From Escherichia coli (lineage in GTDB: Bacteria; Pseudomonadota; Gammaproteobacteria; Enterobacterales; Enterobacteriaceae): a stretch of 64,000 bases of DNA. Of this stretch, positions 20,061 to 50,933 are shown piece after piece. Positions within the stretch are counted from its first letter, which is position 1, and the number at the start of each line of letters is the position of its first letter. The notes beneath the pieces are model-generated. The model made no database searches. It had not been told where the DNA came from and saw only the letters and a list, made by a program, of their open reading frames with translations. The position numbers and the translations under genes are program-made. The stretch is taken from assembly GCF_002854065.1 (NCBI RefSeq), contig NZ_CP024147.1; one strand, written 5' to 3'.

Positions 20061-20128
20061 GATTACTCCGCTACTCCGGTCATTCACACTCAACTAACGT
20101 TAAGCCAGTCCATCGCAGAGACTGGCTT

Positions 20129-20458
20129 ATGAAACCTTACTCCACGCTTTTTCTTTTCACCCTGCTCACGCTGACCACCGTACCGGCCCAGGCCGATATT
20201 ATCGACGACACCATTGGCAATATTCAGCAGGCGATTAACGATGCTTATAACCCTGACCGTGGGCGAGACTATGAAGATTCGCGCGACGACGGCTGGCAGC
20301 GTGAAGTGAGCGACGATCGGCGCAGACAATATGACGACCGCCGCCGCCAGTTTGAAGATCGTCGCAGGCAACTGGACGATCGCCAGCGCCAGCTTGATCA
20401 GGAGCGTCGGCAGCTGGAGGATGAAGAGCGGAGAATGGAAGATGAGTATGGGCGATGA
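20129..20458 (+). CDS. yjdP: Small secreted protein with R/D/E/Q-rich repeats (109 aa)
   Basis: Signal peptide MKPYSTLFLFTLLTLTTVPAQA then DDRRRQ-type repeats. Confidence 0.75.
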   Translation: MKPYSTLFLFTLLTLTTVPAQADIIDDTIGNIQQAINDAYNPDRGRDYEDSRDDGWQREVSDDRRRQYDDRRRQFEDRRRQLDDRQRQLDQERRQLEDEERRMEDEYGR

Positions 20459-20481
20459 TGTTGGGTATGGAGCAGGCATTG

Positions 20482-20530
20482 CCCCTCACCCCGGCCCTCG
20501 CCCCTCTGGGGAGAGGGTTAGGGTGAGGGG
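20482..20530. repeat. GC-rich nested palindromic intergenic repeat (boxC-like) between convergent yjdP and phnP
   Basis: cccctcaccc...gggtgagggg outer inverted repeat with inner ccctct-gggg-agaggg; a related copy at 47710-47737. Confidence 0.6.
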
Positions 20531-20553
20531 GCCAGCGCGCACATTCCCTCTCA

Positions 20554-21312
20554 TCACGCCACCCCAATCTCCATCCCATCAAACCCGGCTTCAAACCCCG
20601 GCGGCAGCGCGTTTTCTATCAGCCACGCATCAAACTGGTGGCTGATATGGGTCAGAACCACGCGCGGCGAGCGGATAACCTGATTCAGCGCAAGCACGGT
20701 ATTTAAATCACAGTGATTACGCGGTGCATCCTCGCGCGGCGGGTGGCTGCAATCAATCACTATTACCTGCGGCTGATTATTGAGTAAAAATTTCAGCGTT
20801 TTTTCCGGCAAGCCTGCGGTGTCAGACAGCCACGCCACCCGGCTGTGTGCTGTTTCCAGCAGATAACCGAAGGTCAGTTTTGAGTGGTTGAGCGGCAGCG
20901 GCGTGACCTGCAATCCCTGCAAATCAAACACTACAAACGGTTCCACCGTGTGGCTAAAATCAAGCAGGCCCGGATGTTTAAACAGATCGTCGCAGCCCTG
21001 TTCATCCGGTGGGCCGTAAACCGGGATCGGATCGCCCACGCCCCAGCGCAGCGGGAATAGCCCCTGCACGTGATCCATATGGTAGTGCGTCAGCAAAAAC
21101 TGCTGGAACGAACCGGGCGACCAGCGATCGGCGAGATCGTGCAGCCCGGCGTCGATCAGGGTGATTGCGTCGTTAAACTTTACTACGCCGCTGCACGGCT
21201 GGCGGCGATACTGCGGCGAGCGCCGCGCTCTGGCGCAGGCCGCACACTCGCAGCCCCATGCCGGAACGCCCTGTGCGCCGCCGGTGCCGGTGAGCGTGAG
21301 GGTCAGGTTCAT
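20554..21312 (-). CDS. phnP: Phosphoribosyl 1,2-cyclic phosphate phosphodiesterase (MBL fold)
   Basis: 252 aa, HYHMDH motif; last gene of the phn operon. Confidence 0.9.
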
Positions 21313-24124: not shown

Positions 24125-24212
<88 letters not shown>

Positions 24213-24215
24213 GGC

Positions 24216-29432: not shown

Positions 29433-29455
29433 GTTTGGCTCCGGTCTGTAGGCCG

Positions 29456-29545
29456 GATAAGGTGCTTGCACCGCATCCGGCATCAACGCCTGCACATTGT
29501 CGGATGCGACGCCGGGGCGTCTTATCCGACCTACGATTTACTGCA
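29456..29545. repeat. REP/BIME elements between phnE and phnD
   Basis: gtaggccggataaggtgcttgcaccgcatccggca and gtcggatgcgacgccggggcgtcttatccgacctacg. Confidence 0.85.
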
Positions 29546-32006: not shown

Positions 32007-32390
<384 letters not shown>

Positions 32391-44258: not shown

Positions 44259-46526
44259 TTACGCTTTCACACACATAACGTGGTAAATACCGTCAATAAT
44301 TTCAGTCCCTTCAGTTTCGTGTTCAAATCCAGGGAAATGATGATCCCAGGATTGCAGCGAGCGTAAATAACTTAGTTGCGGACTGTTTTTATCGCCGAAG
44401 TTTTCACCAGACAGCAGCATCGGGATTCCTGGCGGATACGGGATAACTGAGTTTGCCGCGATACGTCCTGGCAGATTTTCAATGGAAACCAGTTCGACAT
44501 TGTTGTCGACAATCGCGTTGTACGCTTCACGCGGGGTGATTTCCGCCACCGGCAGGCCGGAATAGGCTTCGTTCAACCGTGCGCCAGGGTTGTTTTCTTT
44601 CAGCCAGGCAAACATGGTGTCACCCAGATCGTGAATCCCCATGTTCGCATAAGTGTCAGGATATTGTTCAACAAGTTCCGGCATCACCTGCGCCAGCGGT
44701 GTGTTGGCGTCATAGTGGCGTTTGAAGGAGCAAAGGGTGTTAACCAGAGTCCCCCATTTCCCACGGGTTACGCCCATAGAGAACAGGAACATAATTTGGA
44801 AGTCAGTGGTGCGGGTAGGCACAATGCCGTGGCGACCAAGCCAGGCAGTGACCAGTGCCGCCGGAACACCGGTTTCTTCCAGTTCACCATCTTCACCCAT
44901 TCCCGGAGCAAGGATGCTGACTTTAATCGGGTCGAGCATACTCCAGTTATCCGGAATATCTTTGAAGCCGTGCCAGCTTTCGCCCGGATGCATTACCCAG
45001 CAGTCCTGAACGGTGGTCAGCAGTTTGGTTGGTGCGTCAGCAAAGTCATAGGTTTTGCCGGTTTGTGGGTCGGTGACGACTTCTTTGTTCCACGGTTTGA
45101 AGAACCAGCTACCGTCAGCGGTGAACTCTTTATACAGCCGCGCCATCGCCTGACGGAAATCAACCGCTTCGTCGATCACTTCCTGCGTCAGTGACAGGCC
45201 GCTGTTGCCGTCCATCATCGACACCGCCACGTCGTTGGATGCGCAGATGGCATACAGCGGGGAGGTGGTGGCATGCATCATGTAGGCCTGGTTGAAGCGG
45301 GAGAAGTTAATCGCCCCACGACCTTCACGTACATGAATATAAGAAGCCTGTGAAAGCGCATTCAGCAGTTTGTGGGTGGAGTGGGTGGCGAAAACAGTAG
45401 GACCGTTGTGATCGCCAGGTTCGCCGCGCATGGCATAGTGATCGGCATAGATCGGGTTGAAACGTGCATAGCCGTACCAGGCTTCGTCAAAGTGCAGACG
45501 ATCGGAGGTTTTTTCCAGCAGATCCTGCGCTTCTTTAGCGTTATAACACACGCCGTCATAGGTGCAGTTGGTCACCACGCAGTAAGACGGTTTTTGCCCG
45601 GCTTTGTCTTTAGTCAGCGGGCTTTCACTGATTTTCTTCTGCAAGGTTTCAGGTTGCATTTCCTGCGGATAGATTGGCCCGATAATGCCGTAGCGGTTGC
45701 GGCTTGGCACCATGTAGACCGGTTTCGCGCCTGTCAGCATCAAACCTTGTTCGATGGATTTATGGCAGTTACGGTCAACGACCACGACATCGTTATCGGT
45801 CATGCAAGCCTGCATGATGGTGCGGTTAGAGCCGGAAGTACCGACGACTACCGACCAGGAGCGATCGGCACCAAATACGCGTGCGGCATATTTTTCGCTT
45901 TCGCCAAATGCGCCAGTATGGTCAAGCAAAGAACCGAGGGAAGTTCGTTCGATGCCCATGTCGGTGCGGAACAGATTTTCACCGTAGTAGTCATGGTAGA
46001 AACGTCCGGCGGGTGTTTTGGTAAAACCAACGCCGCCCTGGTGGCCTGGCGCTGCCCAGGAATATTCATGGATGTCGCTATATTTCATCAGCGCGCTGAA
46101 CAGTGGCGGCAACAGCTGCTGGCGGTAGCGGGTCATCGCGGCAACGGCGCGTCCGGCGATAAAGTCGGCGGTATCTTCCAGAATCCAGGCGAATTCATCG
46201 ACAAGCTCCAGCAGGTCGCGATCCATTGCGGCGAGGGCTTTTTCCCGATCGCCCAACAGGAAGACCGGCACGTTTTGTTGGCGCTCATGAAGCTTACCGA
46301 TCAATTGTCTGACGTTTTGATGTTCGTCCGGATGTTCCATTTGATAGCTGAACATCAGGCAGTCAATGGCTTCGTTTGAAGAGAGAATGGCAAAACCATC
46401 ATCAAAGGAGGTGGATTTAATCACGGTAACATTTTGCTGGCTTAAAGCATCTGCCAGACGCTCAACGGCGTTACCGACCCAGGTGTCTTGATGGAGAAAC
46501 TCGCTTTCAACAATTAATACTTTCAT
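44259..46526 (-). CDS. adiA: Biodegradative arginine decarboxylase (755 aa)
   Basis: PLP-fold decarboxylase (group III), STHKLL lysine motif; paralogous in architecture to cadA in this window. Confidence 0.92.
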   Translation of the reverse strand: MKVLIVESEFLHQDTWVGNAVERLADALSQQNVTVIKSTSFDDGFAILSSNEAIDCLMFSYQMEHPDEHQNVRQLIGKLHERQQNVPVFLLGDREKALAAMDRDLLELVDEFAWILEDTADFIAGRAVAAMTRYRQQLLPPLFSALMKYSDIHEYSWAAPGHQGGVGFTKTPAGRFYHDYYGENLFRTDMGIERTSLGSLLDHTGAFGESEKYAARVFGADRSWSVVVGTSGSNRTIMQACMTDNDVVVVDRNCHKSIEQGLMLTGAKPVYMVPSRNRYGIIGPIYPQEMQPETLQKKISESPLTKDKAGQKPSYCVVTNCTYDGVCYNAKEAQDLLEKTSDRLHFDEAWYGYARFNPIYADHYAMRGEPGDHNGPTVFATHSTHKLLNALSQASYIHVREGRGAINFSRFNQAYMMHATTSPLYAICASNDVAVSMMDGNSGLSLTQEVIDEAVDFRQAMARLYKEFTADGSWFFKPWNKEVVTDPQTGKTYDFADAPTKLLTTVQDCWVMHPGESWHGFKDIPDNWSMLDPIKVSILAPGMGEDGELEETGVPAALVTAWLGRHGIVPTRTTDFQIMFLFSMGVTRGKWGTLVNTLCSFKRHYDANTPLAQVMPELVEQYPDTYANMGIHDLGDTMFAWLKENNPGARLNEAYSGLPVAEITPREAYNAIVDNNVELVSIENLPGRIAANSVIPYPPGIPMLLSGENFGDKNSPQLSYLRSLQSWDHHFPGFEHETEGTEIIDGIYHVMCVKA

Positions 46527-46724: not shown

Positions 46725-47633
46725 TTAGCCGGGAAACGTCTGGCGGCGCTGTTGGCTAAGTTTGCGGTATTGTTGTGGCGACATGCCGACATATTTGCCG
46801 AACGTGCTGTAAAAACGACTACTTGAACGAAAGCCTGCCGTCAGGGCAATATCGAGAATACTTTTATCGGTATCGCTCAGTAACGCGCGAACGTGGTTGA
46901 TGCGCATCGCGGTAATGTACTGTTTCATCGTCAATTGCATGACTCGCTGGAATATCCCCATTGCATAGTTGGCGTTAAGTTTGACGTGCTCAGCCACATC
47001 GTTGATGGTCAGCGCCTGATCATAGTTTTCGGCAATAAAGCCCAGCATCTGGCTAACATAAAATTGCGCATGGCGCGAGACGCTGTTTTTGTGTGTGCGC
47101 GAGGTTTTATTGACCAGAATCGGTTCCCAGCCAGAGAGGCTAAATCGCTTGAGCATCAGGCCAATTTCATCAATGGCGAGCTGGCGAATTTGCTCATTCG
47201 GACTGTTTAATTCCTGCTGCCAGCGGCGTACTTCAAACGGGCTAAGTTGCTGTGTGGCAAGTGATTTGATCACCATGCCGTGAGTGACGTGGTTAATCAG
47301 GTCCTTATCCAGCGGCCAGGAGAGAAACAGATGCATCGGCAGATTAAAAATCGCCATGCTCTGACAGGTTCCGGTATCTGTTAGTTGGTGCGGTGTACAG
47401 GCCCAGAACAGCGTGATATGTCCCTGATTGATATTCACTTTTTCATTGTTGATCAGGTATTCCACATCGCCATCGAAAGGCACATTCACTTCGACCTGAC
47501 CATGCCAGTGGCTGGTGGGCATGATATGCGGTGCGCGAAACTCAATCTCCATCCGCTGGTATTCCGAATACAGCGACAGCGGGCTGCGGGTCTGTTTTTC
47601 GTCGCTGCTGCACATAAACGTATCTGTATTCAT
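46725..47633 (-). CDS. melR: AraC-family melibiose operon regulator
   Basis: 302 aa, C-terminal AraC HTH; divergent from melAB. Confidence 0.9.
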   Translation of the reverse strand: MNTDTFMCSSDEKQTRSPLSLYSEYQRMEIEFRAPHIMPTSHWHGQVEVNVPFDGDVEYLINNEKVNINQGHITLFWACTPHQLTDTGTCQSMAIFNLPMHLFLSWPLDKDLINHVTHGMVIKSLATQQLSPFEVRRWQQELNSPNEQIRQLAIDEIGLMLKRFSLSGWEPILVNKTSRTHKNSVSRHAQFYVSQMLGFIAENYDQALTINDVAEHVKLNANYAMGIFQRVMQLTMKQYITAMRINHVRALLSDTDKSILDIALTAGFRSSSRFYSTFGKYVGMSPQQYRKLSQQRRQTFPG

Positions 47634-47709
47634 GGATGGCTCTCTTTCCTGGAATATCAGAATTATGGCAGGAGTGAGGGAGGATGACTGCGAGTGGGAG
47701 CACGGTTTT

Positions 47710-47737
47710 CACCCTCTTCCCAGAGGGGCGAGGGGAG
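47710..47737. repeat. boxC-like GC-rich palindromic repeat in the melR-melA intergenic region
   Basis: caccctcttcccagaggggcgaggggag; reverse complement shares the core ccctcgcccctctggg(g/a)agagggt with 20482-20530. Confidence 0.55.
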
Positions 47738-47915
47738 TGTCCGAGCATCATGAGGCCGAAAACTCTGCTTTTCAGGTAAATTATTCCTATAAACTCAGAT
47801 TTACTGCTGCTTCACGCAGGATCTGAGTTTATGGGAATGCTCAACCTGGAAGCCGGAGGTTTTCTGCAGATTCGCCTGCCATGATGAAGTTATTCAAGCA
47901 AGCCAGGAGATCTGC

Positions 47916-49271
47916 ATGATGTCTGCACCCAAAATTACATTTATCGGCGCTGGTTCGACGATTTTCGTTAAAAATATTCTTGGTGATGTGTTCCATCGCG
48001 AGGCGCTGAAAACGGCGCATATTGCCCTGATGGACATTGACCCCACCCGCCTGGAAGAGTCGCATATTGTGGTGCGTAAGCTGATGGATTCAGCAGGGGC
48101 CAGCGGCAAAATCACCTGCCACACCCAACAGAAAGAAGCCTTAGAGGATGCCGATTTTGTCGTGGTGGCATTTCAGATTGGCGGTTATGAACCTTGCACG
48201 GTGACTGATTTCGAGGTCTGTAAGCGGCATGGTCTGGAACAAACCATTGCCGATACGTTGGGGCCGGGCGGTATTATGCGCGCGCTACGTACCATTCCGC
48301 ATCTGTGGCAAATTTGCGAGGACATGACGGAAGTCTGCCCCGATGCCACCATGCTCAACTATGTTAACCCAATGGCGATGAATGCCTGGGCGATGTATGC
48401 CCGCTATCCGCATATCAAACAGGTCGGGCTGTGCCATTCGGTGCAGGGAACGGCGGAAGAGCTGGCGCGTGACCTCAATATCGACCCGGCTACGCTGCGT
48501 TACCGTTGCGCAGGTATCAACCATATGGCGTTTTACCTGGAACTGGAGCGCAAAACCGCCGACGGCAGTTACGTGAATCTCTACCCAGAACTGCTGGCGG
48601 CTTATGAAGCAGGGCAGGCACCGAAGCCGAATATTCATGGCAATACTCGCTGCCAGAATATTGTGCGCTACGAAATGTTCAAAAAGCTGGGCTACTTCGT
48701 CACGGAATCGTCAGAACATTTTGCTGAGTACACACCGTGGTTTATTAAGCCAGGTCGTGAGGATTTGATTGAGCGTTATAAAGTACCGCTGGATGAGTAC
48801 CCGAAACGCTGCGTCGAGCAGCTGGCGAACTGGCATAAAGAGCTGGAGGAGTATAAAAACGCCTCCCGGATTGATATTAAACCGTCACGGGAATATGCCA
48901 GCACAATCATAAACGCTATCTGGACGGGCGAGCCGAGTGTGATTTACGGCAACGTCCGTAACGATGGTTTGATTGATAACCTGCCACAAGGATGTTGCGT
49001 GGAAGTAGCCTGTCTGGTTGATGCTAATGGCATTCAGCCGACCAAAGTCGGTACGCTACCTTCGCATCTGGCCGCCCTGATGCAAACCAACATTAACGTA
49101 CAGACGCTGCTGACCGAAGCTATTCTTACGGAAAATCGCGACCGTGTTTACCACGCCGCGATGATGGACCCGCATACTGCCGCCGTGCTGGGCATTGACG
49201 AAATATATGCTCTTGTTGACGACCTGATTGCCGCCCACGGCGACTGGCTGCCAGGCTGGTTGCACCGTTAA
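47916..49271 (+). CDS. melA: Alpha-galactosidase (GH4, NAD/Mn-dependent)
   Basis: 451 aa, N-terminal Rossmann motif ITFIGAGS. Confidence 0.92.
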   Translation: MMSAPKITFIGAGSTIFVKNILGDVFHREALKTAHIALMDIDPTRLEESHIVVRKLMDSAGASGKITCHTQQKEALEDADFVVVAFQIGGYEPCTVTDFEVCKRHGLEQTIADTLGPGGIMRALRTIPHLWQICEDMTEVCPDATMLNYVNPMAMNAWAMYARYPHIKQVGLCHSVQGTAEELARDLNIDPATLRYRCAGINHMAFYLELERKTADGSYVNLYPELLAAYEAGQAPKPNIHGNTRCQNIVRYEMFKKLGYFVTESSEHFAEYTPWFIKPGREDLIERYKVPLDEYPKRCVEQLANWHKELEEYKNASRIDIKPSREYASTIINAIWTGEPSVIYGNVRNDGLIDNLPQGCCVEVACLVDANGIQPTKVGTLPSHLAALMQTNINVQTLLTEAILTENRDRVYHAAMMDPHTAAVLGIDEIYALVDDLIAAHGDWLPGWLHR

Positions 49272-50819: not shown

Positions 50820-50915
50820 GCCTGATGCGATATGTTTATCAGGCCACGTCTTAATGTAATGCTTTGGATTTGCAAATTTTGTAGACCGGATAAGGAATTC
50901 ACGCCGCATCCGGCA
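50820..50915. repeat. REP elements downstream of melB
   Basis: gcctgatgcgatatgtttatcaggcc and gtagaccggataaggaattcacgccgcatccggca. Confidence 0.75.
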
Positions 50916-50933
50916 TCAACAAAGTGCACGTTG

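Follow-up and report, generated by a model that had tools for sequence, protein, structure and literature searches.

The closest described relatives of the two sequences analyzed here belong to a family of E. coli repeats which was reported on three occasions, under the names BoxC, PIT and TMECO. Holder et al. 2015 (NAR 43:10126, PMC4666352) present TMECO as a motif "earlier described as BoxC" and rediscovered as the PIT element, and equate it with the PIT element (Maher et al. 2000) as well as with the BoxC motif known since the 1990s; the equivalence of the three names is taken here from that paper. The TMECO consensus consists of three blocks, CCCTCNCCC N3-6 GGGNGAGGG N3 GGGNGAGGG, and the 9-nt words CCCTCNCCC and GGGNGAGGG are the building blocks of BoxC. 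TMECO oligonucleotides of types A and B, as well as mismatch variants, folded in vitro into a stable intrastrand triplex as judged by CD and NMR, while in vivo no triplex was detected (PMC4666352). The same paper catalogued 23 copies in MG1655 and found that TMECO loci vary more between strains than control loci do. A different figure for BoxC in the literature is 32 copies of 56 bp (Petrillo et al. 2008, PMC2267715).

The window analyzed here is a 64,000-nt stretch of an E. coli genome. An earlier reading of the letters alone, the original prediction, proposed that it holds two copies of a boxC-like, GC-rich nested palindrome which share a core in opposite orientation. Both copies are intergenic, in the gene contexts which that reading gave them: the first, called here the phn element, sits within the 95-nt spacer which separates two convergent genes, yjdP (ending at 20458) and phnP (stop codon 20554-20556), and the second, the mel copy, lies between the divergent genes melR (ATG at 47633) and melA (ATG at 47916). 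The shared core was confirmed, with the mel copy reversed and the two 24-nt cores identical at 23/24 positions, and a repeat scan of the window recovered the same pair (inverted pair I16). All five GGGNGAGGG blocks in the window fall within these two elements, where chance would supply 1.08. Short C- and G-runs make up both sites and lower their complexity, which is the one point in favor of a chance resemblance between GC-rich, low-complexity sequences. However, when the window was shuffled 100 times with its dinucleotides preserved, the core was never matched, even with up to 3 mismatches allowed, and the likeness continues into both flanks, as detailed below for the mel copy. On these two grounds chance similarity was rejected, and its probability is practically nil. 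Coordinates of the elements and of their surroundings are collected in the table.

Features of the two elements, the melR promoter and related repeats (positions are those of the window unless MG1655 is named; promoter coordinates were inferred from the distances in PMC2377442)
Feature	Position	Strand	Remarks
Compact four-block BoxC palindrome (C-C-G-G)	20482..20531	.	CCCCTCACCCC GG CCCTCGCCCC TCT GGGGAGAGGG TTA GGGTGAGGGGG
phn blocks CCCCTCACCCC; CCCTCGCCCC; GGGGAGAGGG; GGGTGAGGGGG	20482-20492; 20495-20504; 20508-20517; 20521-20531		
phn 24-nt core CCCTCGCCCCTCTGGGGAGAGGGT	20495-20518	+	yjdP-phnP spacer
Type A TMECO/BoxC unit	20495..20530	+	loop TTA; consensus match; TMECO no. 22 of MG1655
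Type B TMECO unit	20483..20517	-	loop CCG; consensus match; C-G hairpin in common with the A unit
A-unit tail spacer and degenerate C block	20532..20553	+	CCAGCGCGCACATTC CCCTCTCA; ends at the phnP stop codon
mel 24-nt core CCCTCGCCCCTCTGGGAAGAGGGT	47711..47734	-	melR-melA spacer; C block, TCT loop, G block (CCCTCGCCCC TCT GGGAAGAGGG T); third block missing
Extended mel element	47698..47748	-	solo hairpin and both head flanks
mel B-unit head flank GAGCACGGTTTTCA	47698-47711	+	
mel A-unit head flank ATGCTCGGACACTC	47735-47748	-	reverse complement of these positions
melR -10 hexamer CATAAT	47667..47662	-	
melR start	~47655		
CRP2 site	47686..47707	-	centre 47696.5 = -41.5
MelR site 1	47763..47780	.	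centre ~-116.5; 15 nt past the extended repeat
CRP1 centre	47810.5		inferred
REP/BIME copies in the window	24126-24214; 29445-29535; 32007-32389; 50878-50919		
Unannotated BoxC/TMECO copies in MG1655 (NC_000913.3)	164,547-164,631; 624,579-624,676; 3,045,989-3,046,087; 3,239,599-3,239,698; 3,781,028-3,781,156; 4,314,285-4,314,320		

The phn element is a member of the published family, and the boxC-like label was correct. Its type A unit is letter for letter TMECO no. 22, which Holder et al. list as entry 22 of their Table 1 (CCCTCGCCCCTCTGGGGAGAGGGTTAGGGTGAGGGG, at 4,314,285-4,314,320 on the + strand of MG1655) and site between yjdP and phnP in Table S2 (PMC4666352). The three-block consensus matched the phn element twice, with overlap, at 20495-20529 (+) and 20483-20517 (-), and matched in 0 of 100 shuffles. 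As elsewhere in the family, units with the type A loop (TTA) and the type B loop (CCG) are paired in inverted orientation. What differs is the compact, overlapping C-C-G-G form of the pair in the window strain, which MG1655 lacks; the intact type B unit is missing there through a 12-nt deletion. Both strands of the element fold into a nested hairpin (-22 kcal/mol as single-stranded DNA, z = -4.6 against shuffles; -20.5 kcal/mol, z = -3.6 for the other strand). The claim of a nested palindrome stands at this site. Downstream, the A-unit tail looks by eye like a part of the hrpB-mrcB BoxC pair of MG1655, namely its central spacer with the C block that follows; CAGCGCGCAC.TTC.CCTC is common to both. 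The product of the neighboring gene yjdP (20057-20458) is a small protein containing DDRRRQ-type repeats in tandem, named "DDRRRQL repeat protein YjdP" in RefSeq, so that a repetitive coding sequence stands directly beside a repetitive intergenic element.

Conservation within the family exceeds the 36-nt motif, as was seen in five inverted A/B pairs of MG1655 together with the phn loci of K-12 and PCN033. Next to the C block of A units lies a head flank such as GTGCTCAGACAGTC; B units have theirs, such as GAGCACCGTTTTCT; and pairs arranged tail to tail have the central spacer TAAT.TTCGCACC.GTGCTGGC.TGTTC in common. Full A/B pairs are palindromic composites of roughly 100-130 bp. A genome-wide search with a 76-nt query found the family in 5,425 of 5,426 complete E. 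coli genomes, with 1-37 places in each and a median of 19. The RefSeq annotation of NC_000913.3 places no feature on the copies at six inspected MG1655 loci, and a reader of the sequence alone therefore has no annotation by which to recognize them. Membership in a curated RNA family was rejected, since the covariance models of Rfam 15 gave only sub-threshold hairpin matches (13-24 bits against gathering thresholds of 54-100).

REP/BIME (PU) sequences are likewise short, GC-rich, imperfectly palindromic, intergenic and multi-copy, and often lie between convergent genes. Their sequence is unrelated to BoxC, as seen in the REP sequence GCCGGATGCGGCG...CGCCTTATCCGGCCTAC of this window (24176-24210 and 32052-32086). 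The window's REP/BIME copies differ in sequence from both sites, and the REP families D2, D13 and I1-I13 include neither site. REP/BIME identity was rejected on these grounds, in agreement with the original prediction that the repeat is not a REP element. We know of no RAYT-type transposase for BoxC. Two other repeats of the window were also observed. The stretch 32007-32389 is a BIME-type cluster of about four tandem 100-nt units, each with the REP sequence TGCCGGATGCGGCGTAAACGCCTTATCCGGCCTAC. Three co-linear direct repeats (D4, D7, D9), 70-79% identical and about 18.2 kb apart, connect 44956-45394 with 63188-63548 and look like paralogous coding sequence, in genes which we take, from the usual E. 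coli gene order, to be probably adiA and cadA.

The phn locus was surveyed across E. coli with a 601-nt query spanning yjdP-phnP, for which the length of the aligned stretch varies between genomes. At least seven spacer lengths were found: 158, 146, 95, 91, 76, 34 and 27 nt. The K-12-like allele has the 146-nt spacer, the window and one further genome (L005) the 95-nt spacer, a genome with its own variant (L006, NZ_CP095533.1) 91 nt, O157 76 nt, another sampled genome (L003) 34 nt, and UPEC 27 nt. The window spacer thus differs from the K-12 form, so that the window is E. coli but not K-12. K-12 has a C-G hairpin on the left, then 39 nt of spacer and a C-G-G unit, against C-C-G-G in the window. 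A six-block allele (C-C-G, spacer, C-G-G) was predicted from the two, built and then searched for. It exists: the constructed sequence matched without a break over 143/143 nt in at least 25 genomes, PCN033 among them, and pairs a canonical minus-strand type B unit with the type A unit on the plus strand.

Four alleles each equal the six-block form minus one segment with short direct repeats, drawn from the blocks, at its ends. The allele of the window and L005 lacks 63 nt (junction repeat CCCTC, with 0 mismatches elsewhere in L005), K-12 lacks 12 nt (CCCC), O157 lacks 82 nt (TCGCCCCTC), and L003 lacks 124 nt (CCC). The 27-nt UPEC/B2 allele showed no clean single deletion from the six-block form (12 mismatches). 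It was also rejected as a clean empty site: it keeps a spacer-like remnant, GGGGCCGGCGCGGGTATTTTCCCTCA, and the single deletion misfits. The series reproduces, at a single locus, the "intergenic change" and the "palindrome effect" which Holder et al. describe for the family (PMC4666352), and such strain-to-strain deletion variability is a further point of likeness between the phn element and other TMECOs.

Rough allele frequencies come from a spread sample of 60 rows out of 5,431 records: about 55% were K-12-like, 18% B2-like, 12% of the -124 nt type, 7% O157-like and 2% window-like. The six-block allele made up 1-2% or less, as one row in 60, which was PCN033, its own source genome. By parsimony, we infer that the six-block allele is ancestral and that the change was deletion and not insertion. 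The direction is favored because a 12-nt insertion which happened to make a canonical B unit would be very unlikely; the rarity of the six-block allele in the sampled genomes counts against its ancestry. A side observation concerns L006, in which the region 360-470, homologous to about 20459-20575 of the window, carries a triplicated 25-nt sequence, CCCATCACGCCACCCCAATCTCCAT, beside a truncated BoxC. This sequence spans the stop and last codons of phnP, and the triplication may alter or duplicate the phnP 3' end.

The phn history which fits these alleles would start from a six-block inverted A/B pair. The window form would then have arisen by loss of 63 nt between two direct copies of the C block, which would fuse the A unit to its inverted partner. 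Full copies, with their repeated blocks and a strong hairpin which forms a triplex in vitro, would tend to lose segments between short direct repeats, with replication slippage as the probable mechanism.

Its position and fold invite a different reading of the phn element, as a bidirectional terminator or an RNA-stabilizing hairpin serving the convergent genes yjdP and phnP. It forms a strong hairpin on both strands and fills most of the 95-nt convergent spacer, and a GC-rich hairpin downstream of genes is what it has in common with intrinsic (Rho-independent) terminators. Unlike these, it has no U/T tract: neither strand has a T-run after the stem, and a terminator scan returned nothing at 20482-20531, nor in the mel intergenic region. 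Published assays of PIT/TMECO showed neither terminator nor promoter activity (PMC4666352, citing Maher's group), and no promoter-like signals were found here at the phn or the mel element. In addition, an intact unit is missing from the phn locus in roughly 40% of E. coli genomes, including those with hairpin-less spacers of 27 and 34 nt, which indicates that the element is dispensable. A terminator or promoter role was rejected for lack of a signal at either element, and the terminator or stabilizing-hairpin reading of the phn element is very improbable. The elements are without a demonstrated cellular function, and the behavior which the evidence supports is passive. The best-supported account is that of an inert, structure-prone dispersed repeat whose own blocks template local deletions.

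The mel copy is a shorter case. It has two of the three blocks and does not match the TMECO three-block consensus, so that of the two sites only the phn copy agrees with the published consensus. Only one GGGNGAGGG block is present (47726-47734), and after the hairpin stands GAAAACCGTGC where TTA-GGGTGAGGG would be expected. It cannot adopt the fold of three strands. The copy is outside the published catalogue of 23, and melR goes unmentioned in the supplement of that paper (PMC4666352). Here the claim of a nested palindrome did not hold: the mel copy has the inner hairpin only, and its fold is no better than that of shuffled sequence (-6.6 kcal/mol, z = -0.8; 40 of 200 shuffles folded as well). 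Covariation of the hairpin was absent among seven Escherichia sequences (82.5% of cells paired against 81.1% when shuffled).

What connects the mel copy to the family beyond its core are its flanks. Read on the plus strand, the extended element is GAGCACGGTTTTCA-CCCTCTTCCC-AGA-GGGGCGAGGGG-AGTGTCC-GAGCAT, with both head flanks at their expected positions. The B flank matches that of the alx-sstT B unit at 12/14 positions, and 5 of the 127,972 14-mers in the window come equally close (4e-5); the GCAC within it is ancestral CRP-site sequence, which weakens this match by 4 of the 14 positions. The A flank matches that of the ygfF-gcvP A unit at 11/14 positions, with 31 of 127,972 14-mers equally close (2.4e-4). 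Judged by its letters, the mel copy fits an uncatalogued two-block BoxC remnant with both family flanks. A deletion between direct C blocks in a pair arranged tail to tail would leave precisely this, one hairpin and the two outer flanks, and judging by the flanks the remnant may derive from a full A/B pair. Such a deletion would have removed the inside of the pair, leaving one C-G hairpin and the outer flanks, and in the genus Escherichia the remnant would then have gone to fixation within the spacer that separates the CRP site from MelR site 1. A fuller mel element was not found: the region has a single length, with zero indels, in 5,398 E. coli genomes, and the loci of three other Escherichia species are equally long. 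Length-invariance is another respect in which the mel copy differs from catalogued TMECOs.

Within E. coli there are two mel haplotypes, of which the B2-type one is more degenerate. They differ at about 30 positions within some 70 nt (47694-47766) centred on the BoxC remnant, with nearly identical flanks, and 1,025 of 5,400 genomes (~19%) fall in the band of 90-95% identity for this region. In a scan of species with MelR, taking one genome per species, the mel motif was present in 3 of 80 loci, all of them Escherichia. Aligned outgroups, including Salmonella, Citrobacter and Kluyvera, have at this position an unrelated, AT-richer stretch which is 12 nt shorter, while MelR site 1 is kept in them, as are CRP2 and the -10 region.

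The position of the mel copy can be compared with the mapped melR promoter. Published work gives the melR -10 hexamer as CATAAT, with a CRP site some 41 bp upstream of where melR transcription starts, a distance of 237 bp between the melR and melAB starts, and MelR site 2 at -174.5 (PMC2377442). The positions which follow from these distances agree with the sequence: the CRP1 centre placed in this way is the centre of an inverted repeat, the CRP2 half-sites CGTGC/TCGCA are kept in other genera, and the MelR site 1 sequence CTCTGCTTTT is kept across genera. On this map the mel core occupies -56 to -79 of the melR promoter, between CRP2 and MelR site 1 and 4 nt beyond CRP2. To the question of overlap with MelR or CRP sites, which had been raised for this copy, the answer is divided: the core is clear of CRP2 and of every MelR site, whereas the extended B flank covers the distal 10 nt of CRP2.

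Could the mel copy be a working part of this promoter, whether by binding a protein or the alpha-CTD, or by acting as a structural spacer which the MelR repression complex needs? The core lies directly upstream of a class II CRP site, and its length is constant in all the E. coli genomes compared. The published promoter data argue against such a role: MelR had no effect on DNase I bands at -35 and -65, MelR was still expressed from pJW15, in which the melR promoter is truncated at -59, and TB10, without the upstream sequence, matched the full fragment in activity, at 330 Miller units against 300 (PMC2377442). Moreover, the motif is missing from outgroups that keep the promoter's other elements, and it diverges fast between Escherichia lineages without covariation. 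Its constant length has a sufficient explanation in a constraint on length, as helical phasing between the MelR sites matters for melR repression and can account for the absence of indels. A regulatory role is accordingly quite unlikely. The absence of indels could mean that the remnant sits in a constrained segment, and is not merely inert.

A separate question is where the family came from. One proposal is that BoxC is a present or recent non-autonomous mobile element, MITE-like or REP-like, and that the two copies in the window are independent insertions. It concerns origin and is compatible with the decay described above. Near-identical copies are scattered across unrelated intergenic regions, and as in MITEs the full A/B pair is an imperfect palindrome of about 100-130 bp, dispersed between genes, with conserved ends and a conserved central spacer. 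Outside the three blocks, the head flanks and tail spacers of the units are conserved. The mel copy is confined to Escherichia, while the site around it is conserved in other genera too, and the occupied loci differ between strains (62 conserved loci in 56 strains, PMC4666352). In contrast to MITEs, BoxC showed no target-site duplication, partner transposase or insertion polymorphism: every resolvable phn allele is a deletion and none is an insertion. The mel region is just 12 nt longer than in the outgroups, which does not correspond to a clean 51-nt insertion. Phage records hardly contain the repeat (3 of 50,697), and it is rare among plasmids too (206 of 72,556), where it occurs mostly on rhizobial and Azospirillum megaplasmids. 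Current or recent mobility of this kind seems unlikely, although well short of negligible; the family may have a mobile-element origin.

A more elaborate version, which we regard as rather unlikely, is that BoxC is the decayed trace of a palindromic mobile element of about 100-130 bp which spread in the A/B1 lineages and was then eroded by deletions which its own blocks templated. The A and B units, the G(A/C)GCAC-like word in the head flanks and the conserved central spacer may be what is left of such an element, and the mel remnant may have landed by the melR CRP site which it now overlaps. If this were true, the remnant would have replaced an AT-richer stretch in the zone of class II CRP promoters which the alpha subunit of RNA polymerase usually touches, and it may have altered melR expression in Escherichia.

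The family is unevenly distributed. Table S7 of Holder et al. gives 1-2 intact TMECOs in B2 strains (CFT073, UTI89, 536 and others) against 20-30 in A/B1 (PMC4666352). In the B2-type genomes sampled here (L004, L008, L009) blocks are missing from the phn locus, and the mel remnant shows more degeneration. The B2 pattern suggests lineage-wide erosion or an absence of expansion. BoxC-like GC-rich block palindromes were also seen outside Escherichia, in multiple copies (up to 25 places per record), on megaplasmids and chromids of Azospirillum, Sinorhizobium and Rhizobium and on one Enterobacter hormaechei plasmid. Related repeats therefore reach well beyond Escherichia, in agreement with the wide occurrence reported in PMC4666352.

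Taken as a whole, it is highly likely that both window sequences belong to BoxC/PIT/TMECO and that the phn deletion series and the mel remnant are to be explained in the way proposed here. The family and the phn copy were already known, and the finding is real but ordinary. Its discovery value is small, as the family has been described three times and the phn copy stands on the published list. What is added is the deletion series between yjdP and phnP, with a six-block ancestor that was predicted and then found and four alleles derived from it by single deletions, and the mel copy as an uncatalogued two-block remnant with family flanks, confined to Escherichia and located on the mapped melR promoter. 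These details of the loci are useful for annotation because the elements are unannotated in NC_000913.3. Confounded as the comparison is by the spacing constraint at mel, the two sites offer a natural contrast for BoxC-driven deletion, with a full unit at the indel-rich phn locus and a two-block remnant at the indel-free mel locus.
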